This document shows positions 2,590 through 62,803 of a DNA stretch of 64,000 nt, in pieces. Origin of the DNA: Candidatus Ryanbacteria bacterium CG10_big_fil_rev_8_21_14_0_10_43_42 (lineage in GTDB: Bacteria > Patescibacteriota > Minisyncoccia > Ryanbacterales > 2-02-FULL-48-12). The position numbers and the translations under genes are program-made. The notes below the pieces were generated by a model. It was not told the DNA's origin and did not search any database. It saw only the letters and a list, made by a program, of their open reading frames with translations. Position 1 is the first letter of the stretch. The number at the start of each line of letters is the position of its first letter. The stretch spans positions 7,571 to 71,570 of the forward strand of contig PFEF01000005.1 of assembly GCA_002793915.1 (NCBI GenBank), read 5' to 3'.

Positions 2590-2707
2590 GTAATTATAAT
2601 ACTACAGAAAAAGAAACTGCTATAGAGGATTATCCACAGAACAGAGAAAGTATAGCGGAATTCTATAGTATAATGAAAAGCATTATAAGATATTAACTAT
2701 TGTAACC

Positions 2708-5143
2708 ATGATACGCGCGCGCTTTTCCTTTATGCACATACTTTTTTCTGTCGTATTTGGCGTGGGAGGTATGCTGGCGTTATTTTTTACATTCACGTAT
2801 GCACAGTCATCAGCGTGTCATCTTTTGAATTCAAGCAATCCGGTTCCGCAGGGATATGGTGCCGCATATAATTCATTTTCAACAGGAAGAGAGCTTATTG
2901 CCGAGACGTTCTGTGACAATAATACCGTATCTGTTGTGGTAGGACAAAATGAAGATCAAAGTACGGTGGCGGTATGGAAACAGGGGTGGAAATGGAACGG
3001 ATCGTCGTGGTCGGAGATAACACTTTCCGGAACGCCGTTCACGGAAGATAGTAACTGGATTTTAGGAACGGGGCGCGTATTTATTCCGAGCAGTTCTTTT
3101 TCGGAAGGAGTACATGCGGTGGCGGTATTCGCCTGTGTTCTTGAGGGGGGTAATTGGCAATGCGGGTGTCGCGATAACTCTTGCGGTACCAGTAATTGGA
3201 TGCTTCAGCAATTTGCTGTTTCCTCAACACTTCCTCCGTCACCGAGCGGATGTATAGGCGCACCGCAGGGAGTGTGCGATGCGTACGATAACGGAACGGC
3301 AACGGGTACATACTGCAAAGACGGAAATACCCGTACCGTAACGGGGGATCCGGATTATGTATTTTGGGCCGCAAACAACACTATTTACCATCGTCTTTCC
3401 GCGCATGTCTTTATTGAGGTGTCTACGGGAGAATGGGATGCCGGACAAGCGGTATGCGAATCGGTGGAAAGCGCGCTTGATGTTGGCGGCGGCGGACAGT
3501 CATGTATAGGCGCACCGCAAGGAGTGTGCGATGCGTATTTAAATGAAACGGCCACCGGTACATACTGCAAAAATGGCATAATGAGTACCGTAACAGGGAC
3601 GCCCGAATATGTATATTGGGGTGCAAATAATACTATTTATCACCGCATGGCACACAATGTATTTGCCGATGTTCCCCAAGCAGATTGGGACGTATACGAG
3701 ACAGCATGTCAGGCAGGTACGACGCCAAACGGGTGCACGGGCGCGCCACAAGGAGTATGTACGGCATATATTAATGAATCGGCAACGGGCACGTATTGCA
3801 ATGACGGCGTGGAAAGTACCGTGACGGGAGATCCGGATTATGTATATTGGGGTGGGAACGATACCATTTATCATCGTCTTTACGATAGGGTTTTTAATAC
3901 GATTTCAAAAAGCGAATGGGACGGCACGAAAGCTATTTGTGCGGCGGAAGAATCGATTGCCAACTCGATAGTGCAGTGTAAGGGCGCGCCTCAAGGAGTG
4001 TGTGATGCGTATACAAACGGCATAGCAACGGGTACATACTGTAAAGACGGAAATACCCGTACCGTAACGGGAGATCCGGATTATGTATTTTGGGCGGGGA
4101 ATAATACTATTTATTATCGTCTGGGGACTGGTTCATTCGTACCGATTTCAGAGGCGGACTGGAATGCCGGACAGGCGGCATGCGGGAATGAATCGGTGCC
4201 ACGGTGCATAGGCGCGCCTCAAGGAGTGTGTGATGCGTATACAAATGGTACAGCAACAGGCACGTATTGTACGGATGCAAGTACCCGTACCGTAACGGGA
4301 GATCCGGATTATGTATTTTGGGGTGGGAACGATACTATTTACTACCGGCTTGCCGAAGGAGTATTCATACCCGTACCGCGTTCCGAATGGGATGCCGGGC
4401 AGAGTGCCTGTGAGGCAATGGAAAGCCAGCTTTCTTTGGGTACCGCATGCGTAGGCGCTCCGCAGGAATTGTGTACAGCATACAATAATGGAACGGCAAC
4501 GGGTAATTATTGTGCGCATGGCATAATGAGTACGGTTGCGGGAGACCCTGATTATGCATACTGGGGTCCTACCGATACTATTTATTACCGTCTTGCTCAT
4601 AACGTTTTTGTTCCGGTGGCGCGCAATGAATGGGACGCATATGAACAAGCATGCCTTCTTGGTATTAATAATGAAAACAGATGTGAGGGAGCATCAAGTT
4701 TTGTGTGTGACACCTATAAGGAGGGTATCGCTACAGGAACATATTGTCGGTATGGTGCGGAAAGTACCGTAACGGGAGATCCGGATTATGTATATGACGG
4801 TTTTTCCGACACTATTCACTATCGTTTGTGGGATGGTGTGTTTGAAACAGTGTTGAGTCCTAGTTGGGCGGCGGGACAAGCGGTATGTGCGTTGGAAGAG
4901 TCGGTGCGGAATACCTATACAACATGTACGGGCGCGCCGCAAGGGGTATGTAATGCGTATAATAACGGAACGGCAACGGGTACATACTGCAAAGACGGAA
5001 ATACCCGTACCGTAACGGGGGATCCGGATTATGTATTTTGGGGCGGGAACGATACCATTTACTACCGGCTTGATAAAGGATCTTTTGCGGAAATACCCCG
5101 TGCTACCTGGGATGCATTTCAAACACAATGCGATAGTATGTAA
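2708..5143 (+). CDS. secreted repeat protein: N-terminal signal/TM + 8 tandem ~80-aa four-cysteine repeats
   Basis: 811 aa. Repeat consensus C-x-GAPQGVCDAY-N-TATGTYC-DG-RTVTGDPDYVFWGGNDTIYYRL...W-D-Q-C. Repeats 1, 4 and 8 share a ~67-nt identical DNA stretch. Confidence 0.8.
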   Translation: MIRARFSFMHILFSVVFGVGGMLALFFTFTYAQSSACHLLNSSNPVPQGYGAAYNSFSTGRELIAETFCDNNTVSVVVGQNEDQSTVAVWKQGWKWNGSSWSEITLSGTPFTEDSNWILGTGRVFIPSSSFSEGVHAVAVFACVLEGGNWQCGCRDNSCGTSNWMLQQFAVSSTLPPSPSGCIGAPQGVCDAYDNGTATGTYCKDGNTRTVTGDPDYVFWAANNTIYHRLSAHVFIEVSTGEWDAGQAVCESVESALDVGGGGQSCIGAPQGVCDAYLNETATGTYCKNGIMSTVTGTPEYVYWGANNTIYHRMAHNVFADVPQADWDVYETACQAGTTPNGCTGAPQGVCTAYINESATGTYCNDGVESTVTGDPDYVYWGGNDTIYHRLYDRVFNTISKSEWDGTKAICAAEESIANSIVQCKGAPQGVCDAYTNGIATGTYCKDGNTRTVTGDPDYVFWAGNNTIYYRLGTGSFVPISEADWNAGQAACGNESVPRCIGAPQGVCDAYTNGTATGTYCTDASTRTVTGDPDYVFWGGNDTIYYRLAEGVFIPVPRSEWDAGQSACEAMESQLSLGTACVGAPQELCTAYNNGTATGNYCAHGIMSTVAGDPDYAYWGPTDTIYYRLAHNVFVPVARNEWDAYEQACLLGINNENRCEGASSFVCDTYKEGIATGTYCRYGAESTVTGDPDYVYDGFSDTIHYRLWDGVFETVLSPSWAAGQAVCALEESVRNTYTTCTGAPQGVCNAYNNGTATGTYCKDGNTRTVTGDPDYVFWGGNDTIYYRLDKGSFAEIPRATWDAFQTQCDSM

Positions 5144-5164
5144 TTGCACATAATACAGACAAAA

Positions 5165-5193
5165 ATCCGTTATTTATATAACGGATTTTTGTT
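5165..5193. terminator. bidirectional Rho-independent terminator between convergent genes
   Basis: 8-bp stem atccgtta/taacggat with loop tttata. T-runs follow on both strands. Confidence 0.6.
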
Positions 5194-5215
5194 TAGGCAC
5201 CATTTATGGTGTGTC

Positions 5216-5776
5216 TCAAAGGGGAGTTCCGGTGGGACAAAAACTTAATCCCAGTTCTTTGCCGATGTATTTATCATTGACGCTTTGTGGGACACGGACG
5301 GAAATTTTTAATGTACATGCCTGTTGTGGTGTAATATCCAGAAGCATAAGCAGGTCACGTTCCATTTCAGCACGTACAAAAGGGATATTGGAGCCGTTGT
5401 TTATGCTTACGGTAAAGCTTGTATCCGGCGGGTAATACAAAAGCGTATACGAAGTTTGTTCGTCGTGGAGAAATACAATATGTTCTTCGGTGATTATGAT
5501 CGTGGGATCCGTATAAAAATTATGTACGGACATTGGCTCACCGGACCAGTCGTTAACGGTGAACGTATCTCCCGTAGGTAAGGGGGGTGCGGTAATATTT
5601 CCGTCCCCGGTATTCGATCCCGGTATTGTTCCGGGAACGGGAAGCCCGTTTTGACCGGGATTAATTATGACGTCCGGAGGCGTCACGGATGTACGAAAAA
5701 AGAACGCGTATATACCGAAACCAGTAATACTGACTACGACTATAACTATAACAATAAGTAAATGGCGAATATTCAT
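5216..5776 (-). CDS. hypothetical membrane-anchored protein
   Basis: 186 aa with an N-terminal TM helix (LLIVIVIVVVSITGFGIYAFFF) and a Pro/Gly-rich segment. No recognisable domain. Confidence 0.5.
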   Translation of the reverse strand: MNIRHLLIVIVIVVVSITGFGIYAFFFRTSVTPPDVIINPGQNGLPVPGTIPGSNTGDGNITAPPLPTGDTFTVNDWSGEPMSVHNFYTDPTIIITEEHIVFLHDEQTSYTLLYYPPDTSFTVSINNGSNIPFVRAEMERDLLMLLDITPQQACTLKISVRVPQSVNDKYIGKELGLSFCPTGTPL

Positions 5777-5841
5777 AAATGTACTGTACTATAAATCATG
5801 ATTTTAAAAAATGACGTATAAGTAAATGATAAAAGATGTAA

Positions 5842-7008
5842 TTATAATAGATTACAGTCGCCGGCGGTTGACCAATCTTTCCAGGTATTCCCCGCTTCCG
5901 CATATACCTGACATGCTGCCTTAATGTTTGATTTGGCATTTTTTGCCGCAACAACACAGCTTGTATAGAGGCTTTGGTTTACAATGACATACTTGCCTCC
6001 GCTCAACTGAAATGCGGATGGACAATTGAGTCCTGCCACTGAATGAACAGCTATATTGATTTGAAACAGTCCGATGGAGAAAGGGCAATTATTGGGTGGA
6101 TAAGGCGCGGGGCATCCGCCTCCGGTGGCGCGGTCCACCGTGCTTTCTCTCGTCGGGTTACCCGCGCTTTCAGCGCCACATATCTGCGATGCTTGGTTTG
6201 CCACGGATGCAAAGCATGAGGAAGGAGAAGAAAGAGCGGAGACAGAGCACGGTCCGATGCTTACCGGACTGCATGTTCCCCCTCCCGCCGCCGGACAGTT
6301 ATCTCCCGGATTATTATCTTGGCACGTTGTCCATACTTTGCCGTATGTCGCGTTCTCGGTACATACTTGAGAGCCGCTTGCCGGTCCGCAACCCATAAAA
6401 TTACATGCCTGGGTATCTCCCAAATTTTCCGTACAAATCTCAAAGCATGCTGTGTCCCATATACCGTTTAAACACGCTTGTGTACCAGCACCTCCGGAGG
6501 TGGTTGTGCACGCACGCGTTGGTGTAGCTGTCGGGTCGCATGCTTCCGCGCCTCCTCCCCCTCCTCCGCCGCCCGTAAATGCTGGAACGATACGTGCCTG
6601 ACAGGTAGGAAAATCGTTCCAGGGAAGACCGCCTCCGAAGTTTTTAAATCCGATTGTGGAAAGAAGAGTGCTGATAATAACCCATGCGGCAAATGCAATG
6701 AGAATACCGATAATTGTGTTGTATAGAGCGGCTTTTCCGGTTTCGAGTTGTCCGGGGTTTCCGCGGGATGTAAGAAGGAGTATACCGCCTATAAGAAGGG
6801 ATATAACGGCTACCGGAAGAATAAACTTAAAGAGGATAAAATCGATAATATTCTTGACGAGTACATATAAGTCGCATAAATCGCATGCTTTTGTATCCCC
6901 GCAGGGAACAAGACCGCCACTTTGCGCATGTGCCATGTCACCCAATAATACGCCGCCTAATCCGAAAAGGAGAACAATAATAAAGAGAGTTGTAAGGATG
7001 CGGCGCAT
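5842..7008 (-). CDS. fusion protein: VirB2/TrbC-pilin-like N-domain + poly-Gly + Cys-rich VirB1/IagB-like lytic transglycosylase (SLT) C-domain
   Basis: 388 aa. Signal peptide ends AHA|Q, then two TM helices with SRGNPGQLETGKAALYNTIIG (pilin-like), then G8. The C-terminal domain carries AESAGNP...GLFQIN, matching the catalytic ES and GLMQIN motifs of SLT family 1. Confidence 0.55.
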   Translation of the reverse strand: MRRILTTLFIIVLLFGLGGVLLGDMAHAQSGGLVPCGDTKACDLCDLYVLVKNIIDFILFKFILPVAVISLLIGGILLLTSRGNPGQLETGKAALYNTIIGILIAFAAWVIISTLLSTIGFKNFGGGLPWNDFPTCQARIVPAFTGGGGGGGGAEACDPTATPTRACTTTSGGAGTQACLNGIWDTACFEICTENLGDTQACNFMGCGPASGSQVCTENATYGKVWTTCQDNNPGDNCPAAGGGTCSPVSIGPCSVSALSSPSSCFASVANQASQICGAESAGNPTRESTVDRATGGGCPAPYPPNNCPFSIGLFQINIAVHSVAGLNCPSAFQLSGGKYVIVNQSLYTSCVVAAKNAKSNIKAACQVYAEAGNTWKDWSTAGDCNLL

Positions 7009-31941: not shown

Positions 31942-32508
31942 ATGAAACGATCCGCTGGTGTTATTCTTGTTATTGTGGCCATTTTTGGTCTGGGGCTATT
32001 TTTTACGGGACTCTATCCGGTGGCACGCATAAACGAGGATATTGTTCTGCGTCGTACGTTTAGTGAACGCGCAAAAGCGCTTATACAGTTTGAAAACAGA
32101 ACGCGCTCACGCATAAACGGAGCAGAACTTACGGAGGATGAACAGCGGGAATTGGAGCGTGTTGTTCTTGAAAATCTTATTATAAACACGGTTCTCACGC
32201 AATACATTAGACATAATTTTACCGAAACAGATCTTTTTATTGAAGCGGAACTGCGAGTGGAAGAAGCGCTTTCATCGGCCGATGCCGATGTATTACCGCG
32301 TGCTACAAGCGAGCTGTATGGATGGAGTGTTGATGAGTTTAAAAAGAATGTACTTTTTCCACAGGCGCTCATGACCGTTCTTGAAGAGCGGGTTTCTGTG
32401 GATAATTCCAATTTTAAGGAATTTGTACGGGAACAGCTTGTGTATAGTGACGTTTCCCTTTATCTTATTCCGTGGAAATGGCAAAACGGCGAGGTGGTGG
32501 AAAGATAA
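31942..32508 (+). CDS. hypothetical membrane-anchored protein
   Basis: 188 aa from ATG 31942 (MKRSAGVILVIVAIFG...). The ORF-track start at 31807 overlaps ftsB and is rejected. Weak SurA-N-like character. Confidence 0.45.
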   Translation: MKRSAGVILVIVAIFGLGLFFTGLYPVARINEDIVLRRTFSERAKALIQFENRTRSRINGAELTEDEQRELERVVLENLIINTVLTQYIRHNFTETDLFIEAELRVEEALSSADADVLPRATSELYGWSVDEFKKNVLFPQALMTVLEERVSVDNSNFKEFVREQLVYSDVSLYLIPWKWQNGEVVER

Positions 32509-37936: not shown

Positions 37937-38659
37937 ATGGAAGAATCATCAAAAACAAATATATTATCAATCCCCATAGCAATTGTCATTGCCGGAGTAC
38001 TCATTGCCGGAGCTGTTTACATGGGCACTAGTAATAAGGCGGGCATTGCAGAAAACCGGCAGCCGCAAGTTGCTGAACAACAGCAATCAGGAAATCTCGA
38101 TCAGATGGCTCCCATTACAAGCGAGGACCATATTCGCGGCAATCCGAATGCCCAAGTTATAATCGTCGAGTATTCCGATTACGAATGCCCGTTCTGTAAA
38201 GGATTCCATTTGACTATGCAGAGAATTGTTGATGAGTATGGCGACAAAGTTGCATGGGTCTATCGGCACTTTCCGCTCGATTCCATTCACTCAAAAGCGC
38301 GCTCGGAAGCGTTGGCGGCAGAGTGTGCCGCAGAGCTTGGCGGTAACGATGCTTTCTGGAAGTTTACTGATCGCTTCTTCGAGCTGACGCCGTCAAATAA
38401 TCAAACAGACACGGCTACCGTACTGCCGCAAATCGCGCGTGAGATTGGACTTAACGAACCACAGTTTGCTTCATGTCTCACAAGTGGAAGGTACGATGAC
38501 CACATTCAAGCAAATCTCGATAACGGTATTGCAACCGGCGGAAACGGTACTCCATGGAGTATTGTTGTTACAAAGAGTGGTAAAAAATACCCGCTCTCGG
38601 GCGCACAGCCGTACGCATCAGTGAAGCAGTTCATTGATCTTGCGCTCCAAGAGAAATAA
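37937..38659 (+). CDS. DsbA-family thiol:disulfide oxidoreductase (membrane-anchored)
   Basis: 240 aa. N-terminal TM helix; thioredoxin fold with CPFC active site (YSDYECPFCKGFH) and an inserted helical domain. Confidence 0.75.
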   Translation: MEESSKTNILSIPIAIVIAGVLIAGAVYMGTSNKAGIAENRQPQVAEQQQSGNLDQMAPITSEDHIRGNPNAQVIIVEYSDYECPFCKGFHLTMQRIVDEYGDKVAWVYRHFPLDSIHSKARSEALAAECAAELGGNDAFWKFTDRFFELTPSNNQTDTATVLPQIAREIGLNEPQFASCLTSGRYDDHIQANLDNGIATGGNGTPWSIVVTKSGKKYPLSGAQPYASVKQFIDLALQEK

Positions 38660-38661
38660 CT

Positions 38662-39222
38662 ATGAGCACCCATCTGCACAACATCAAACAAGCGTTTACG
38701 GAGGTGTTCGCACATACTTCCTACATCGCGCTCGCAAGCGTACTTACGCTTTTTGCGTTTGTGTTTGCAGTGTGGTTCCCGAATCTCGGACTCATCATTG
38801 ACGTATTCACCACTTCAAGTGCTCCGATAGTAGCAAAACTTAAACTCATAATGAGCTTACTTGGCGGTATCGGTACCAACTTTAGTGTGCTTTCTGCAGG
38901 ATACACAATTGCTATTGCCATTCTCTTCGGAATACTTGTCGCGATGATTGTCTATCTTATAAGGAAGAGACAAGCACAACTTGGAGGTGGCACTCTTGCT
39001 ACGGGACTTGGTGGCGTGTTCAGTGGCATCCTTGGTGTTGGATGTGCAGCTTGTGGATCCTTCCTCCTCATGACAATACTTGCTTCATTCGGAGCGACGG
39101 GTGCAATAGCGCTTCTACCACTCAAAGGAGGAGAGTTCGGTGTTGTGAGTGTCGGATTACTTGTTATATCACTTGCGATCACCGCCAGGAAAATTACTGA
39201 ACCATTAACATGCGAATCATAA
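38662..39222 (+). CDS. polytopic membrane protein with membrane-embedded CxxC (candidate DsbB/VKOR-analogous DsbA partner)
   Basis: 186 aa with 4-5 TM helices. GVGCAACGSFLL places a CxxC at a TM boundary. Starts 2 nt after the dsbA-like stop. Confidence 0.5.
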   Translation: MSTHLHNIKQAFTEVFAHTSYIALASVLTLFAFVFAVWFPNLGLIIDVFTTSSAPIVAKLKLIMSLLGGIGTNFSVLSAGYTIAIAILFGILVAMIVYLIRKRQAQLGGGTLATGLGGVFSGILGVGCAACGSFLLMTILASFGATGAIALLPLKGGEFGVVSVGLLVISLAITARKITEPLTCES

Positions 39223-46561: not shown

Positions 46562-47099
46562 GGCATACAGGTTAATAAATAAGTAAAAGTCATAACAATA
46601 CTTGTAGAATACGCCGAAGAGGGTGGTATGTCAAAAAGTTATCCACATCTTTAGAAAACTAGAATTGTTGACAAGCTGTACGGATAGAAACTATCATAAG
46701 AATATTATTAAATAAAAAGGCAAGGGATGTGTTGATGTACAGCATTTTATAGATTATGTACTGCTAATGCATACCGTCTTTCAAACACCATGAATAAAAT
46801 TACATCGGTGCGACTCGTTAAAGGAGAATTAAAAAAGGTCAATCAAATTATCGATTACAAAATTCTTCACGGATTTTCTTACCATAAAGAGGCGCAGTAT
46901 CATAAGTCGCTCTTGAATCGCCTGAATAGTCTTACGCGCCATGGGTGGATGGGAAATCCGTTTACAAGCTTTACATAACATCATATGGATACGGCACTTT
47001 ATTCTATGCAAGAAACATGTGAGATTCTCGGACGAGTTTATTCAACACCGGAAAAAATAGCAAAGATACATAAAAATTACAAAAATAAAAAGGGGAATT

Positions 47100-53892: not shown

Positions 53893-54417
53893 TAGGGAGT
53901 CTGTATAAGCTAATGTGGCATTGACGAAAGGGGCGATATTTCGTATACTGTACAGGATCCGCGAATTGTTTCTTGACTTGTCTTATCCACAGTTTTTAGG
54001 GCAAGTTCCTTTGGAAATAGAGGAAATTATTCTTATAATGGGTGTACCTTTCGCGTAAGCGATGTTGCGGTGAGCGGAATGTAGCGCTTTTTGTTTCTTT
54101 ACTATCCGTCTATACAATATATTAGCTTGAATGATGGTGGCATATTTTCACTTGAAATATATGTACATGTCGGTATCATTCAGGTCGATATGTTAGTCCG
54201 GAGAATGTAATCCGGTTCTGCAAGACTGAACATTAACAAATGAATAGTGAGCAAAAAGACGGCACAGAAATGTGTGAAGTTTTTTCATTTGTTATTCGAC
54301 AGAGTTATTTCACAAGTCGATTACATTATTAGTTCGGATGTGCGTGTTGTGCGTATGGTCGGTATGTGCAACATATTACACACATCCAAAAAAACATTAC
54401 TATTAGATTTTAAGCAT

Positions 54418-57400
54418 ATGAGTAGATATCAGAAGATGGTGCGAAAAGCCACTTCCGTATTTGTGAGCTTGACGACGACTATCTGGCTTGCCGGATTCGG
54501 TACACTTGTACCTTTTGCCGCTAACGCGCAATCGGTAGCGGATTTGCAGGCGCAGATTAACGCTCTCTTGGCGCAGATTACGGCGCTTCAAGCGCAGTTA
54601 GCAGCTGGCGGCGGATCAGTTTCCACCGGCGCTGTATCGTGTAACTTTACACGAAGTCTTACAATCGGAGTGCAGGGCGAAGATGTTCGTTGCTTACAGC
54701 AATACCTTAATGGCGCAGGCCACACGCTTGCTTCCAGCGGCGCTGGATCACCGGGAAGCGAGACCACATACTTCGGTCCCATTACCCGCGCGGCAGTATC
54801 AAGTTGGCAGGCGGCAAATGGCGTGAGTCCAACGGCAGGATATTTCGGTCCTATTTCGATGGCGAAATATAATGCGTTAATTGCGGCCATTCCTCCGGTA
54901 ACGGGTGGTGGTACCGGAACAGGCACGGGCACCGGAACAGGCACGGGCACAGGTACTACCGGAACGGGTATTACGGTAGGATCAGCATCCCAGCCGGCGG
55001 CAACGCTTGCGGTACAAAATGCTATCCACGTTCCATTTACCTCGTTTACCTTAACGGCATCGTCCGACGGTAACGTATTGGTAGATTCCATAACGGTGGA
55101 ACGAACGGGCTTGGCAAATGATGCCGCGTTTGCAGGAGTGGTTCTCTTAGATGAGAACATGATGCAAATTACGCAGAATCCAAAAACATTTAATTCTAAT
55201 CATCAGGCAATCTTGACCGATGATTTCACGGTTCCCGCCGGACAGACCAAGCGGTTTTATCTCGCAGGTAATATGGCGGCAAGTCTTACGGCATACGCAG
55301 GACAGGTGGCAAACCTTCGCTTGGTAGCGGTAAATTCAACCGCGCAGGTGAATGGCGCACTTCCTATAGAAGGAACGGGACACACTATCAACGCTTCCCT
55401 TTCCGTAGGTTCGGTAACGCTTACCCGCGGTACGAACGATCCAAATACGGGCGTTACGAAAGAAGTGGGAACAACGGGCTATACGTTTTCTTCCATAAAG
55501 GCAACAGCCGGATCCGCGGAAGATATGCTGGTCAAGTCCATTCGATGGAACCAGTCCGGATCAGCCTCCAAGGATGATTTGGAAAACGTTATAGTAGTTG
55601 ATACAAAAACAGGAAATGAATATACGCCGACGGTTTCTTCCGATGGCAAATACTACTCTGCCGATTTTGGTAGCGGTATTTCTATCAAGAAGGGAGAAAA
55701 TACGGAAGTATATATCAAGGGAGACATTAAGTCGGGTTCCGGTCGTACGGTAGACTTCGACTTATACCGCTATGATGACTTTGTATTCGAAGGTAAGACC
55801 TTTGGTTACAAGATTAAACCATCTTCAACCGAAACATCGGCTGACAACGATGACGACTCCGAATTCCAGGATTCACAACCACGTTATGATGCAAGTCAGG
55901 TTGAAATCGGCACGGGAAGTCTTCGCGTTGAGAAATCAAATGACGTGCAGGCAAGTAACGTTGCAAACGGTGCCGACGGCGTAGAACTTGGTTCGTTCAA
56001 GTTTGATGTAGACGGCGAGGCAATTAGCTTCACGCAGTGGGTTCTTACGATCGCAACAACCGATGCCGACAGTGGTGGTGAGAACAGTGTTCTTACCAAC
56101 ATCACGGTATACGACTCAAACGGTAATGCTGTAGCTGGCCCTACTGATCCAAATTCAGCAGGAAGCGCAGTAACCATTACCGATTCCATAACGGTACCGG
56201 TGGGTGATAATATCTACACGGTGCGCGGTGACTTAAATAACAACTGGCAAAACAACGATACGATTATTGTTTCCTTTACCCCATCTAGCGCATTATCGCA
56301 GGTAACGGGTGATACAACAGGAAACACTATCACTCCAACGCCTTCCACGGCTGTTTCGGCAAACGTGCAGACAATTAAGGCGGGAGGTCTTGTTGTAACG
56401 CCTTCAACTTCGCTCGCAAGCCAGACCCTTATCGAAGGATCAAATGGCGTTGAGCTCGGACGATTCGTTCTTGATGGAACCGCTTCCGGTGAAGACATTA
56501 AGATTACGGTCGTGAAGATTCTTGGTGATGTAACAGGTGCAGACATCAACGATTTCGTAAGTTTGCAATTGTTTGACGGCACAACGGCTTTGAACACCGG
56601 TTCAAATGTTCTCCAGCCGGCGGCAACTGCGGATGGCACCGACCTCGTCCTCTCCTTCACACTTGATTCTCCGGGACTTATTATTCCAAAGGGAAGCACA
56701 AAGATTATTTCCCTGAAGGGTAATATTACCACCGCGGCAAACGATGGCGATCAGGCCAAATTTGACTTCTCGGCAAGCGTTTCCGATGGTGACTGGGGTA
56801 CATCCGGTGTAGATTCCGGGCAGGATATTGTCGAAACCTTCTCAACGGCGGCAGGTGCAACAATCACCACGCAATCAGGTGGCGGTTGGAGCGTTTCAGC
56901 GGCACCTTCCAAGCCAACAGAGAAATGGGTAACGGCGGGAGCAACGGGTGTAACATTGAACGTACTTCGTTTCAACTCAACGTCTGAAGAATTTGCTCTT
57001 ACCGATCTTCGCTTACAGATCGACACAACGGGTTCATCTACGGGTGCCGACTTCACGAAGATCTATCTCTATGATGGAAGTACGCTCTTGCAGTCCAAGA
57101 CACCTGCCTTTACGAATGGCGTAGAAGACTTTACTTTCCCAACAACGGGAACAGGGGCCTTTGTTATTCCGAAAGATGATTTCAACGAGCTTACTATCAA
57201 GGCTGATCTCGCAACCATTGGCGCATCCCAGCCAGGTACGGCAGGACAGCTTGTGGGTGTTGATTACGATGGTGCTAATTCAACAAAGAATAAGGCACAG
57301 GGTAAGGCATCCGGAACAAGTAAGCATTCCAGTACGGCATCTGACGTAACCGGAAACGGTGTTGTCTACTTCCGTTCGGTACCAACCATTGAACGGGTAA

Positions 57401-58053
57401 GTCTTCCACAAACAACGCTTACATCTGGTAATCATGTGCTTTATCGGTTCAAGATAACGGCAGACCCAGCATATGATGTTGCATTGCATAAAGTAGCCTT
57501 TAGTGTTGCAACAACCGGTCCGGCAACTATGGCTTTCTCCGGTTCTCCAGCAAACTTCACGCTTTGGAACACAACTGATAACAAGAGAGTATCAGCGGCG
57601 ACAGGTACAACAAATGCGATCTATGACGACATTAACTACTACAATGCAAACAGTCAGTTAATTGTTCGTATTCTCGCAGATACCACCGATTATTCCAGCG
57701 CATGGGTAACTATTCCGGCAGGTCAGACACATACCTTTGATCTTCGCGCGGATATTATCAGTGATGGTTCTGGTGATTCGGTGTCTACGAAACTCCTTGG
57801 TGATGATGCGCGGGACCCAAGACTTTCGTTAACGGGATCGGCTGCCGTTACCATGCAGACTGTTGCTGCGATAGACGATGGTCATAATGCGGGTGGAACC
57901 TCGAACGTTGCTTCCAGTTCCAACTTCATATGGTCAGACTTCTCTACTGACGCAACGACGACGCATGCTATAACCACGCATGACTGGATGAACGGCTTCA
58001 AAGTGCCGGGACTCCTCTCAACGGGTCTTGACTCATCGACATTGTCGAACTAG
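54418..58053 (+). CDS. large cell-surface protein (signal anchor, coiled coil, PG_binding_1-like domain, (GT)n linker, ~1000-aa Ser/Thr/Gly-rich beta region)
   Basis: 1212 aa from ATG 54418. SVADLQAQINALLAQITALQAQL coiled coil; CLQQYLN...YFGPITRAAVSSWQAANGV PG-binding-like; GTGTGTGTGTGTGTTGTG linker; no Cys thereafter. Confidence 0.7.
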   Translation: MSRYQKMVRKATSVFVSLTTTIWLAGFGTLVPFAANAQSVADLQAQINALLAQITALQAQLAAGGGSVSTGAVSCNFTRSLTIGVQGEDVRCLQQYLNGAGHTLASSGAGSPGSETTYFGPITRAAVSSWQAANGVSPTAGYFGPISMAKYNALIAAIPPVTGGGTGTGTGTGTGTGTGTTGTGITVGSASQPAATLAVQNAIHVPFTSFTLTASSDGNVLVDSITVERTGLANDAAFAGVVLLDENMMQITQNPKTFNSNHQAILTDDFTVPAGQTKRFYLAGNMAASLTAYAGQVANLRLVAVNSTAQVNGALPIEGTGHTINASLSVGSVTLTRGTNDPNTGVTKEVGTTGYTFSSIKATAGSAEDMLVKSIRWNQSGSASKDDLENVIVVDTKTGNEYTPTVSSDGKYYSADFGSGISIKKGENTEVYIKGDIKSGSGRTVDFDLYRYDDFVFEGKTFGYKIKPSSTETSADNDDDSEFQDSQPRYDASQVEIGTGSLRVEKSNDVQASNVANGADGVELGSFKFDVDGEAISFTQWVLTIATTDADSGGENSVLTNITVYDSNGNAVAGPTDPNSAGSAVTITDSITVPVGDNIYTVRGDLNNNWQNNDTIIVSFTPSSALSQVTGDTTGNTITPTPSTAVSANVQTIKAGGLVVTPSTSLASQTLIEGSNGVELGRFVLDGTASGEDIKITVVKILGDVTGADINDFVSLQLFDGTTALNTGSNVLQPAATADGTDLVLSFTLDSPGLIIPKGSTKIISLKGNITTAANDGDQAKFDFSASVSDGDWGTSGVDSGQDIVETFSTAAGATITTQSGGGWSVSAAPSKPTEKWVTAGATGVTLNVLRFNSTSEEFALTDLRLQIDTTGSSTGADFTKIYLYDGSTLLQSKTPAFTNGVEDFTFPTTGTGAFVIPKDDFNELTIKADLATIGASQPGTAGQLVGVDYDGANSTKNKAQGKASGTSKHSSTASDVTGNGVVYFRSVPTIERVSLPQTTLTSGNHVLYRFKITADPAYDVALHKVAFSVATTGPATMAFSGSPANFTLWNTTDNKRVSAATGTTNAIYDDINYYNANSQLIVRILADTTDYSSAWVTIPAGQTHTFDLRADIISDGSGDSVSTKLLGDDARDPRLSLTGSAAVTMQTVAAIDDGHNAGGTSNVASSSNFIWSDFSTDATTTHAITTHDWMNGFKVPGLLSTGLDSSTLSN

Positions 58054-59840: not shown

Positions 59841-61142
59841 ATGATAATACAAGTACGTAATACTTTTGTTGGCACGCAAATTACGTGGTGGCTGGGGGCA
59901 GTGTTTTTAGTAGCGACTCTTTTTGGGGCGCGGTGGGCCGATGCGATAACAACAAGTCAGGACGTTACGCTTCAAGCCGCAACCGGCGGGGATGTTACCA
60001 TGATTTCGGGATCGTCATTCGATACGCTTACCACCAGTGGAAATTTCTTCACCTTTACATTATCAGGTGCACAATCTGTTACATTGCGTGATAGCGACAA
60101 ACATATAATGAAAACGAATGTGAGCGACCTAACGTTTACATGTAATGAGGGCAACTCCGAGCTTGTGATTTCAGCGTCAGATGCGGCAAGTATTCAGGTT
60201 TCAATAGAAGGGTTTTCCTGTGGAGGCGGTCCTGGAGGGGGTGGTTCCGGCGGCGGAAGTTCTTCCGGCAGCAGTTCATCTTCTACTACAGATACAACAT
60301 CTACCGCAACAACAGAAACAGCAGATGATTCCACAACAACTGTGGCGGATACTACAACAACAGACGATAGCCGATTAAGCGGTACGGGAACAGCAGCTGC
60401 ACTCGAAGCGGCCGGCTCTGACTCATCGCCGATAACTACTAGCAATAATATTTCAACGGCAGGCAGGTTTCCTGATATTCTTAAGCTTTCACGCGGACTT
60501 GATATAGGTTCTGAAGGGAATGATGTACGTTCTTTACAGGAAGCGCTTGCCAGTATGCCGGATTTGTATCCGGAAGGGATAGTATCGGGATATTACGGCT
60601 CTCTTACCCGAGCGGCAATAGCGGCGTTTCAGATGAAATATGGCGTTGTTAGTTCCGCCAATGATGCGGGGTATGGATACGTAGGACCAATGACGCGCGC
60701 AAAGCTGATAGAAGTATTCGGAGGGAGCGGTAGTGTCACTAGCGGCTCTATTACCTCTACCGGGCCGGTACTCAACTCATCATTTACGTTTACACGGGAG
60801 CTCCAGTTGGGGGACGAAAATAATGATGTTTTGCAATTACAAACATTTCTTGCGGGCGATGCATCTCTTTATCCGGAAGGGATAGTGTCAGGATACTATG
60901 GTTCACTTACCCAAGCGGCAGTGCGCCGGTTCCAGGCAAAGTACGGCATTAGCCAAGTGGGGCGTGTCGGACCGCAGACAATGGCAAAATTGAACGAGGT
61001 TATGGGATCGTCAGGAAACGCGCCCTCCACTACTAATGGGAGCACGGACGATACGGCGGAGGCGGCCGCACTAAAGAGTCAGATAGAACAACTGCAGGAC
61101 ATGATCGGCTCTCTAAACGCACAACTAGGAACAGATCAATAG
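59841..61142 (+). CDS. secreted protein with two PG_binding_1-like domains and C-terminal coiled coil
   Basis: 433 aa. Two copies of GNDVRSLQEALA...YPEGIVSGYYGSLTRAAIAAFQMKYG. G/S/T low-complexity linker. C-terminal EAAALKSQIEQLQDMIGSLNAQL. Confidence 0.65.
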   Translation: MIIQVRNTFVGTQITWWLGAVFLVATLFGARWADAITTSQDVTLQAATGGDVTMISGSSFDTLTTSGNFFTFTLSGAQSVTLRDSDKHIMKTNVSDLTFTCNEGNSELVISASDAASIQVSIEGFSCGGGPGGGGSGGGSSSGSSSSSTTDTTSTATTETADDSTTTVADTTTTDDSRLSGTGTAAALEAAGSDSSPITTSNNISTAGRFPDILKLSRGLDIGSEGNDVRSLQEALASMPDLYPEGIVSGYYGSLTRAAIAAFQMKYGVVSSANDAGYGYVGPMTRAKLIEVFGGSGSVTSGSITSTGPVLNSSFTFTRELQLGDENNDVLQLQTFLAGDASLYPEGIVSGYYGSLTQAAVRRFQAKYGISQVGRVGPQTMAKLNEVMGSSGNAPSTTNGSTDDTAEAAALKSQIEQLQDMIGSLNAQLGTDQ

Positions 61143-61270: not shown

Positions 61271-62803
61271 ATGTCTCGATTTGTAATTTCTCTCATAATT
61301 TTTGCATTCCCAGCACTTGTTTCGGCAGATGTTTTTATAAATGAAATCGCTTGGATGGGAAATGGGAACTCGGCAAATGATGAATTTATTGAACTTTATA
61401 ATAATGGTGGAAATACGGTTAATCTTGAAGGATGGTCTCTTGTCGCGGGTGACGGTTCTCCTAATATAGTGCTTTCAGGAACTATTTCTGCAAAGGGATA
61501 TTTTTTATTGGAAAGATCCGACGACGATTCCGTTCCCGGTACTTCGGCAGATATTATATACGCGGGCGCTCTTGGGAATAGCGGCGAACATCTCACGCTC
61601 ATGAACTCAAGCGGTGTTTCTATCGATGCGCTTTCCTATGGAGACGGATGGCCGGCGGGGGACAATACAACAAAGGAAACCATGCAACGCACATCGTCCG
61701 GTGCATGGATAACGGCGGTCCCCACTCCGCGGACGGCGAATATCGTTACCACCGAAGAGAGTAAAGAAGAAACAACGGAACAGAATAATATGTCTTATGA
61801 TGCATCCAATGAATCCGGTAATACAGCATACATTCCCCCCGAAAAATTACCGCACATTACTGTTTATGCGGGGAAGGATAGAACTGTAATTGCGGGAGAA
61901 AGAATATTATTTGACGGATCGGCATTTGGTCTCGAGGGTGAGCATCTTGAAAATGCCCGGTATGTGTGGAGTTTTGGAGATGCGCAGGTGCGTGAGGGAA
62001 AAAAAGTTCCCTATGAATATATGCATCCGGGGTCATATATAGTTCGTCTTACCGTTTCTTCGGGTAAGTTTAGTGCGATAGATGATATGCGTATTACGGT
62101 TGTTGCCGGGGAAATTGCATTAAGTGAAATAAAACCCGGCGCGGATGGGTGGATTGAGATTGTTAATAATGAGTCGAGGGATGTGCATTTGGGGGGATGG
62201 ATACTGAAAACACGTTCATCGCCGGCAACAACGTTTATTCTTCCCTCCGGCATGCTTATTGCAGGGAATAGCCATATTGTATTACTAAATACAACAACGC
62301 ATCTTTCTTTTACGGAGGCGGGTGGATTGGTTACGGCATCCTATCCGAATGGTACAATATTTGACAGCATATCATATGCCATGTACGTTCCGCCCGATAA
62401 GAGTATTTCAAAAGACAATACGTTCATAATGCTTACCAATCCAACGCCGGGTAGGGTAAATGGCATTGATGGCACGGAACAAGACATGAAGATTAGGGAG
62501 GAAAATACGGGAGCCATAAAGTCTAAGGAAAAAAACGAAGAGAAAAATATACAAAGTGTAGAAAACATAAAACAAAACGAGGAGAACAAGAAAATAACAT
62601 CAGAAAAGGAAAATACACAGAGTGAAGAGTTTCGTCCATTATCAGCAACGGTATATGATAGCGGAGGAAGCGGCGGCCCTTTATCCGTTACGTTTCGCTC
62701 CTTACTTATTAGTATGGGAATCGGTGTGGGCGTAGCTATTCTTGCTTTGATTGCGAAGAAACGGCTTCATCCTGATATAACGCGGTTGTCCGGTCAAGCA
62801 TAG
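61271..62803 (+). CDS. lamin-tail-domain (LTD) protein with C-terminal TM anchor
   Basis: 510 aa. Two LTD-like segments (DVFINEIAWMGNGNSANDEFIELYNNGGNTVNLEGWSL; IALSEIKPGADGWIEIVNNESRDVHLGGWIL) and a C-terminal hydrophobic anchor. Its 3' end overlaps the convergent GT4 gene by 68 nt. Confidence 0.6.
   Translation: MSRFVISLIIFAFPALVSADVFINEIAWMGNGNSANDEFIELYNNGGNTVNLEGWSLVAGDGSPNIVLSGTISAKGYFLLERSDDDSVPGTSADIIYAGALGNSGEHLTLMNSSGVSIDALSYGDGWPAGDNTTKETMQRTSSGAWITAVPTPRTANIVTTEESKEETTEQNNMSYDASNESGNTAYIPPEKLPHITVYAGKDRTVIAGERILFDGSAFGLEGEHLENARYVWSFGDAQVREGKKVPYEYMHPGSYIVRLTVSSGKFSAIDDMRITVVAGEIALSEIKPGADGWIEIVNNESRDVHLGGWILKTRSSPATTFILPSGMLIAGNSHIVLLNTTTHLSFTEAGGLVTASYPNGTIFDSISYAMYVPPDKSISKDNTFIMLTNPTPGRVNGIDGTEQDMKIREENTGAIKSKEKNEEKNIQSVENIKQNEENKKITSEKENTQSEEFRPLSATVYDSGGSGGPLSVTFRSLLISMGIGVGVAILALIAKKRLHPDITRLSGQA

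Follow-up and report, generated by a model that had tools for sequence, protein, structure and literature searches.

Bacteria of the candidate phyla radiation (CPR, or Patescibacteria) live on other cells, and their surface proteins are mostly uncharacterized. Large cysteine-rich extracellular proteins are recognized in CPR genomes and have been given a proposed role in attachment; those of Peribacteria carry a signal peptide, have a high Cys content, are predicted to be extracellular, lack annotation and come from a genome with a DsbA-type enzyme (PMC4736985). The gene examined here, at 2708..5143 on the forward strand of a 64,000-nt stretch of contig PFEF01000005.1 from Candidatus Ryanbacteria bacterium CG10_big_fil_rev_8_21_14_0_10_43_42 (hereafter the window), encodes an 811-aa protein that shares all of these traits. 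The Peribacteria proteins differ in their greater size (a mean of about 1,655 aa) and in lying within a 14-gene cluster, and some of them weakly resemble Myxococcus Cys-rich repeats or FG-GAP (PMC4736985), whereas the Ryanbacteria protein has no such similarity and possesses a repeat type of its own and a distinct conserved N-terminal module. What is new here is an unclassified repeat together with an unclassified but widespread N-terminal module, within a known class of tandem-repeat, Cys-rich secreted CPR proteins.

The protein can also be set beside the tandem-repeat stalk adhesins of Gram-positive bacteria (SHIRT-domain SGO_0707, Rib/alpha-like proteins and LapA-type extender repeats). Shared with these are a signal peptide, a putative binding module at the N-terminus, repeats of approximately 70 to 80 aa separated by short linkers, and DNA-level conversion between repeats. 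The repeats of the stalk adhesins are typically near-identical in DNA and variable in number, whereas those of the Ryanbacteria gene are only 52 to 77% identical, with saturated synonymous divergence. Furthermore, the stalk adhesins contain no Cys and are anchored, by LPXTG or otherwise, while the Ryanbacteria protein has no anchor and four Cys in each repeat. Taking these comparisons with the analyses below, we see about an even chance that the gene encodes a Sec-exported, acidic, disulfide-stabilized surface or adhesion protein, made up of a glycan-binding or anchoring head and an eight-repeat stalk.

The gene and its repeat array

The open reading frame (ORF) call agreed with the gene boundaries, strand and product length given in an earlier note on this DNA. 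The product is already deposited as a Candidatus Ryanbacteria 'hypothetical protein' (PJE64507.1, UniRef100_A0A2M8KX78), and a literature search by accessions found no paper on it. The earlier description began at residue ~182; the preceding 181 residues, which it had left undescribed, begin with a signal peptide and continue with a domain that is both conserved and widespread, followed by a Ser/Pro-rich linker (AVSSTLPPSPSG, 3218..3250) placed where relatives of that domain also have Pro-rich linkers.

From residue 182 the protein consists of eight head-to-tail units of 72 to 84 aa, all encoded on the forward strand, and the tandem arrangement described in the earlier note was recovered in full both by alignment and, independently, by a repeat finder (8/8 copies, spacing 228 to 252 nt). 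Tandem Repeats Finder detected repeats 4 and 5 alone, the two copies that are most alike. Repeat 1 (aa 182-265, 3251..3502) has a 69-aa core and a 15-aa linker, and is followed by repeat 2 (aa 266-342, 3503..3733), repeat 3 (aa 343-423, 3734..3976), repeat 4 (aa 424-499, 3977..4204), repeat 5 (aa 500-580, 4205..4447), repeat 6 (aa 581-658, 4448..4681), repeat 7 (aa 659-739, 4682..4924), which is the most diverged copy, and repeat 8 (aa 740-811, 4925..5140), which ends three residues past its fourth Cys. The first and fourth Cys delimit the 69-aa core, which is followed by linkers of 7 to 15 aa. Alignment of the eight copies gave 21 invariant columns, including C1, C9, C22, C69, W62, Y12, Y21, Y36, R48 and F54, in accordance with the four conserved Cys, the conserved Trp and aromatics and the consensus written previously. 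The AlphaFold2 model of repeat 5 (predicted local distance difference test score, pLDDT, 83.7) has the order helix, five strands, helix. A profile-profile comparison found the repeat and the N-terminal domain to be unrelated.

The repeat could not be placed in any described family, as the earlier note had supposed, when the whole protein and single repeats were compared with Pfam, NCBIfam and PHROGs. For the whole protein the best Pfam matches were PIP49_N (E 0.01) and RodZ_C (E 0.094), both below the family cut-offs, and NCBIfam and PHROGs gave only noise below threshold; single repeats scanned one by one at E<=10 gave FG-GAP_3 (0.049) and DUF732 (0.099), in one copy each. Searches of Protein Data Bank sequences with phmmer and hmmsearch returned nothing below E 0.16 for the repeat, and Foldseek found no match to the repeat model in BFVD at E<=0.001. 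Queried with the whole protein, a word index of 5.8 billion proteins yielded the protein's own entry and nothing else. The same type of search with the eight-repeat alignment gave no match, a result of little weight since even the source protein, at 1018 bits against the profile locally, was missed. In an exhaustive comparison with phmmer, 723 clusters among 1.84 billion representative sequences matched the protein at E<=1e-3 (406 at E<=1e-10). The best 150 of the 723 align only to residues ~10-200, that is, to the N-terminal domain and to no repeat; a weak match to a single repeat may lie among the remaining 573. When the matches listed from this search were searched locally with residues 182-811, the protein itself was the sole result.

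Scans at the DNA level gave a similar outcome. Back-translated motif scans of GTDB genomes, JGI metagenomes and IMG/VR produced no confirmed relative of the repeat, and a scan for the pattern CxGAPQGVC found 69 chance sites and no relative. Synteny based on GyrA led to best relatives of 58 to 61% identity (Magasanikbacteria, Falkowbacteria), none of which had the repeat or the N-terminal domain. The source genome and its close relatives are apparently absent from the contig collections searched, and an array that is old can therefore still look unique.

The history of the array is recorded in its DNA. An 81-nt tract in repeat 1 (3288..3368) is identical to one in repeat 8 (4962..5042). A GENECONV-style test found 46 consecutive concordant polymorphic sites for this pair (permutation p<1e-4), and codons for the same residue were identical at 25 of 25 positions inside the tract and at 12 of 22 outside, from which we conclude that it is a real conversion tract and not a product of codon bias. 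The earlier note had described an identical stretch of ~67 nt shared by repeats 1, 4 and 8. This holds for repeats 1 and 8, where the match is longer than proposed, but not for repeat 4, which has mismatches at 7 of the 81 positions (repeat 5 has 16/81). The example coordinates that accompanied the claim, 3307-3375 and 4971-5039, are 10 nt out of register, and only 14 of 69 positions are identical between them as written.

Elsewhere in the array the picture is one of age. Most repeat pairs share exact runs of 7 to 41 nt only, pairwise DNA identity is 52 to 77%, synonymous divergence is saturated (dS 0.8 to >3), and the median ratio of nonsynonymous to synonymous divergence (omega) is 0.18. Our analyses indicate that the repeats are old paralogs under purifying selection and that homogenization is local, so that the recent DNA-level homogenization suggested earlier applies to one tract in repeats 1 and 8 and not to the array as a whole. 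For the same reasons a variable copy number is not supported; nor is the expectation that repeat number would vary borne out by the recorded assemblies, in all of which the gene is the same. The gene also lacks the features of a contingency-type variable-repeat gene, having no near-identical DNA repeats and no copy-number difference among the four records that contain it, which possibly represent one population. What the earlier note observed does exist, but the array is less dynamic than it proposed.

Tandem repeats are error-prone in short-read metagenome assemblies, which is the type of assembly the sequence comes from, and the array could in principle reflect the collapse or chimeric joining of a repetitive region during assembly, or the ORF might be non-coding. 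We consider such an artifact extremely improbable. The longest exact match between repeats (81 nt, most being 7 to 41 nt) is shorter than usual reads and shorter than the k of 141 that a contig name (k141_...) in a second assembly, from ENA, suggests. In that assembly, which is presented as independent, the DNA is identical base for base across 15,143 nt, the gene included. The same 811-aa product is found in an NCBI record (185-kb contig) and in a JGI/ENA record (524-kb contig), and it is identical across all four records that hold it. An artifact is unlikely given the short exact matches, the identical ENA assembly and the agreement between the NCBI and JGI/ENA records, although agreeing records may share reads or derive from one population and are thus supportive, not decisive. 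The frame is also open across 2.4 kb, the repeats are under purifying selection, and the N-terminal domain has hundreds of homologs. Assembly collapse is accordingly an unlikely source of the identical stretches noted earlier.

Export and the N-terminal domain

The first 32 residues (2708..2803) have the form of a Sec-type signal peptide, with the n-region MIRAR, a hydrophobic core and a cleavage site after TYA in TYA-QS, as judged from hydrophobicity and from cleavage sites in the family. It is the sole hydrophobic segment of the protein, its n-region contains two Arg, and in other members of the N-terminal domain family the conserved domain begins directly past similar A-x-A sites. These features agree with the earlier description of a secreted protein and point to export via Sec. 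The class III signal peptide of type IV pilins and minor pilins (G-F/M-T-L-x-E, cleaved after the G) is absent from the first 40 residues. Nor does the protein match the two-transmembrane pilin models PF18895 and PF04956, having only one hydrophobic segment.

The mature protein would have a mass of 83.5 kDa and is acidic (isoelectric point 4.25). It contains 38 Cys (4.7%), an even number made up of 6 in the N-terminal domain and 32 in the repeats, and all 38 positions are conserved, either across the domain family or across the repeats; this conservation suggests that the Cys are disulfide bonded. The protein also has 16 N-x-S/T sequons, compared with 7.8 +/- 2.4 in shuffled sequences (protein positions 195, 223, 279, 307, 356, 384, 465, 513, 541, 594, 753, 781 and others). 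Two of them, N14-x-T16 and N42-x-T44 in repeat numbering, are kept in most repeats, and T44 is invariant; the conserved sequons could be structural or could be glycosylation sites. An S-layer protein was considered on account of the acidic, Thr-rich and sequon-enriched composition, and was rejected because there is no SLH domain and the Cys content is atypical.

Residues 33-170 (2804..3217) form a conserved domain with six family-conserved Cys and conserved Trp residues, for which the structure model is a beta-sandwich (pLDDT 95). Several Trp are conserved in the family, and toward its C-terminal end the domain carries the motif W-[KQ]-C-G-C-[RS]-D-x-x-C-x4-W-x-L-Q-x-F. This domain is the only part of the protein for which homologs were found. 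No model in Pfam or NCBIfam, CBM (carbohydrate-binding module) families included, covers it. Among the 150 best matches listed, it is N-terminal in 124 and at the extreme C-terminus in 24. In 64 family members examined for partners, the domain is accompanied by pectate-lyase-type Beta_helix (12), MopE repeats (6) and NosD (5), and further by GH26, GH16, GH28, apiosidase, polysaccharide lyase, CBM60 and Laminin_G_3, as well as by peptidases of the papain and reprolysin types. Pro-rich linkers follow the domain in the relatives. On other metagenomic contigs genes that carry the domain are adjacent paralogs (482-1330 and 1379-2215 on L150; 2-1381 and 1501-2061 on L154), and one contig with such a pair belongs to another Candidatus Ryanbacteria.

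These architectures invite comparison with the CBMs that are linked to carbohydrate-active enzymes (for example CBM56, and architectures like that of CBM2). The domain shares with them a terminal beta-sandwich of ~140 aa, Trp residues, disulfides, a Pro-rich linker, and relatives fused to GH26, GH16, GH28, polysaccharide lyases and CBM60, and the closest fold neighbor of its model is a CBM. It thus has, in the model, a beta-sandwich fold like that of CBMs and occurs as an accessory module of carbohydrate-active enzymes, but it belongs to no CBM family of CAZy or Pfam. It differs further in that it is also found on peptidases and on metal-binding-type repeats, and, in the present protein, on repeats that are not catalytic. 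The fusion partners (glycoside hydrolases, lyases, beta-helices, CBM60 and peptidases) suggest that the domain is a terminal accessory module that binds glycans in a CBM-like manner or anchors the protein to the envelope.

In an alternative arrangement of reverse polarity the N-terminal domain would attach non-covalently to the envelope of the cell that makes it, as SLH domains or modules that bind the cell wall do, and the repeats here, like the enzymes in the relatives, would be the outward, ligand-binding payload. The strictly terminal position of the domain fits this arrangement, as do payloads that are very diverse, with peptidases and MopE-type repeats besides carbohydrate-active enzymes, and the adjacent paralogous genes on other contigs. 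Still, carbohydrate-active enzymes predominate among the partners and the best fold neighbor is a CBM, so that substrate binding fits equally well, and the domain has no similarity to the known wall-binding modules SLH, LysM, PG_binding and CW_binding. We regard the reverse polarity as possible but on the unlikely side.

The pilin array and other surroundings of the gene

To the left of the gene, on the reverse strand, lie small genes at 126-485, 694-1089, 1123-1518, 1542-1838, 1838-2155 and 2152-2589, whose products match PF18895 (T4SS_pilin; T4SS, type IV secretion system) and, more weakly, TrbC/VirB2. On a longer contig (L156), the array extends over 3145-6503 and comprises eight divergent PF18895 pilin paralogs, six of them within the window, with CYTH and prenyltransferase genes at its edges. 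Such an eight-gene array matches the 'VirB2 arrays' described for Patescibacteria, which consist of 2 to 11 genes and are at times interrupted by non-pilin genes; no adhesin was detected for the Patescibacteria T4SS in that study (PMC12102498). The earlier note had placed the repeat gene divergent from a pilin array; the divergent orientation is correct, with a spacer of 118 nt, but the pilins are of the T4SS VirB2/TrbC-like class and not of the type IV class.

A functional link to the pilins is conceivable, since VirB2 arrays with interrupting genes are documented and their adhesin has not been found (PMC12102498). One possibility is that the repeat protein is co-expressed with the VirB2-like array from the shared spacer and acts as an adhesin or tip factor of a T4SS-type pilus in host contact. 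Its gene would be suitably placed, only 118 nt from the first pilin gene and between the eight PF18895 pilins (six at 126-2589 and two more on L156) and a pilin-lysozyme fusion gene at 5842-7008. With the described T4SS adhesins and tip proteins, VirB5 and the PrgB of Enterococcus pCF10, it shares an extracellular product and a gene that adjoins VirB2-like pilins; it differs from them in having no family match, no LPXTG and no nearby virB4 cluster.

Several observations argue against this possibility, which we hold to be improbable. The ORFs of at least 120 aa in the 64-kb window, and the 3 kb to its left on L156, were scanned and yielded no gene for VirB4, VirB6 or a coupling protein. The protein has an ordinary Sec signal, with no pilin-like N-terminus, and does not match VirB5, PrgB or other adhesin families. 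Six other genes of the N-terminal domain family have no T4SS_pilin neighbor beside them. Finally, the repeat is an orphan and therefore cannot be a general component of the Patescibacteria T4SS. The proposal of a tip protein made in the earlier note is thus not supported, given the N-terminus, the missing core T4SS genes and the family members that lack pilin neighbors. An adhesin role as such, which it also raised, is plausible.

The spacer itself holds a TATAAT -10-like hexamer (2669..2674, forward strand), 33 nt upstream of the ATG, as a putative promoter element, although a consensus scan did not call it. An extended -10 element, TGnTATAAT at 2665-2673, had been proposed here; the hexamer lies at 2669-2674 and is preceded by TAG and not by TGn, so it is not an extended -10. 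A perfect DnaA box at 2630-2638 (TTATCCACA) was found as described. It is one of four such boxes scattered over the window, the others being at 32397-32405 (reverse strand), 46639-46647 (forward) and 53983-53991 (forward); 0.59 would be expected in 64 kb, and none of 100 shuffled sequences reached four. T4SS genes lie close to oriC in some Patescibacteria (PMC12102498). The large ORFs scanned in the window included no dnaA, and the cumulative GC skew climbs steadily across it. Regulation of the repeat gene through a DnaA box was considered and rejected: the boxes are spread out, neither dnaA nor oriC is apparent, and no evidence connects the one at 2630-2638 with the gene.

The DsbA-family oxidoreductase reported for the window is present at 37937-38659 (forward strand), where a family scan identified a DsbA-like, membrane-anchored thioredoxin-fold protein with a CPFC motif. 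Directly after it, at 38662-39222 on the same strand, is a gene for a hydrophobic protein of 186 aa; the product has a CAAC motif, matches no Pfam model and could be the partner of the DsbB/VKOR type.

Downstream of the repeat gene, a perfect 17-bp hairpin between A and T runs (5157..5194; minimum free energy -27.5 kcal/mol, z = -6.7) is a probable bidirectional terminator, shared with a convergent gene on the reverse strand (5216-5776) for a 186-aa protein with one N-terminal transmembrane helix and no family match. In the order of the window this convergent gene precedes the pilin-lysozyme gene (5842-7008), which is on the same strand. The 388-aa product of the pilin-lysozyme gene starts with a T4SS_pilin-like part, continues with a section very rich in Cys and ends in a weak SLT_3 lysozyme-like match; it may be a VirB1-like wall hydrolase joined to a pilin module. 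Genes for a solute-binding protein, a methyltransferase, GyrA and other housekeeping functions lie further to the right. Large putative envelope or surface proteins are also encoded on the forward strand at 54247-58053 (1268 aa), 59841-61142 (433 aa) and 61271-62803 (510 aa); the first two have PG_binding_1 domains and the third has Lamin Tail and PKD domains.

Proposed role at the cell surface

The reading that we favor, of a surface or adhesion protein with a head and a stalk, can be outlined as follows. The protein would be exported through Sec as an acidic extracellular protein of the Ryanbacteria cell and would have two unrelated parts. Cleavage of the signal peptide would leave a beta-sandwich of ~140 aa at the N-terminus, most likely a glycan-binding (CBM-like) or envelope-attachment module, which the Pro/Ser linker would join to eight rigid alpha/beta beads, each of 69 aa with four Cys and separated by linkers of 7 to 15 aa. 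Up to 19 disulfides, presumably formed by the membrane-anchored DsbA of the same window, would rigidify the protein, and the array of beads would serve as an extended stalk, as a multivalent binding surface, or as both. The array would have arisen by old tandem duplications under purifying selection, with occasional short gene conversion, one case of which, between repeats 1 and 8, is clear. The most likely role would be surface attachment, with a host cell or a polysaccharide matrix as the target. Observed directly are the ORF, its repeats and conserved Cys, the domain family with its fusion partners, the predicted folds, the conversion tract and the failure to find relatives of the repeat; Sec export, disulfides, glycan binding or anchoring, and a part in adhesion are what we infer.

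A number of points weigh against this reading. The protein has no LPXTG motif, no C-terminal transmembrane or hydrophobic window and no SLH domain, and its C-terminus (...TQCDSM) ends three residues beyond the last Cys; it is not of the sortase-anchored type and, having no recognizable anchor, could be released instead of surface bound. Since the repeat has no homolog, comparison offers no evidence on its function. The AlphaFold2 model of the repeat was built on an alignment of eight rows, and the taxonomic range of the N-terminal domain is little known, only two members of its family bearing a taxon name. The boldest version of the proposal, in which the protein is a host-contact adhesin of the VirB2-like array, its repeat a new disulfide-locked alpha/beta fold and its N-terminal domain the founder of a new carbohydrate-binding family, appears to us decidedly improbable as a whole.

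No long-standing question is touched by either the repeat or the N-terminal domain, and CPR genomes are expected to encode orphan secreted proteins rich in Cys. The libraries searched contained no relative of the repeat by sequence or by fold; it is a lineage-restricted domain, a candidate new fold and, possibly, an attachment factor. The N-terminal domain is the more general result: its unannotated family has at least several hundred clusters, its beta-sandwich model is very confident, and it is systematically joined to enzymes that degrade polysaccharides. This makes the domain a candidate carbohydrate-binding or envelope-anchoring module of a new type, which merits definition as a family.

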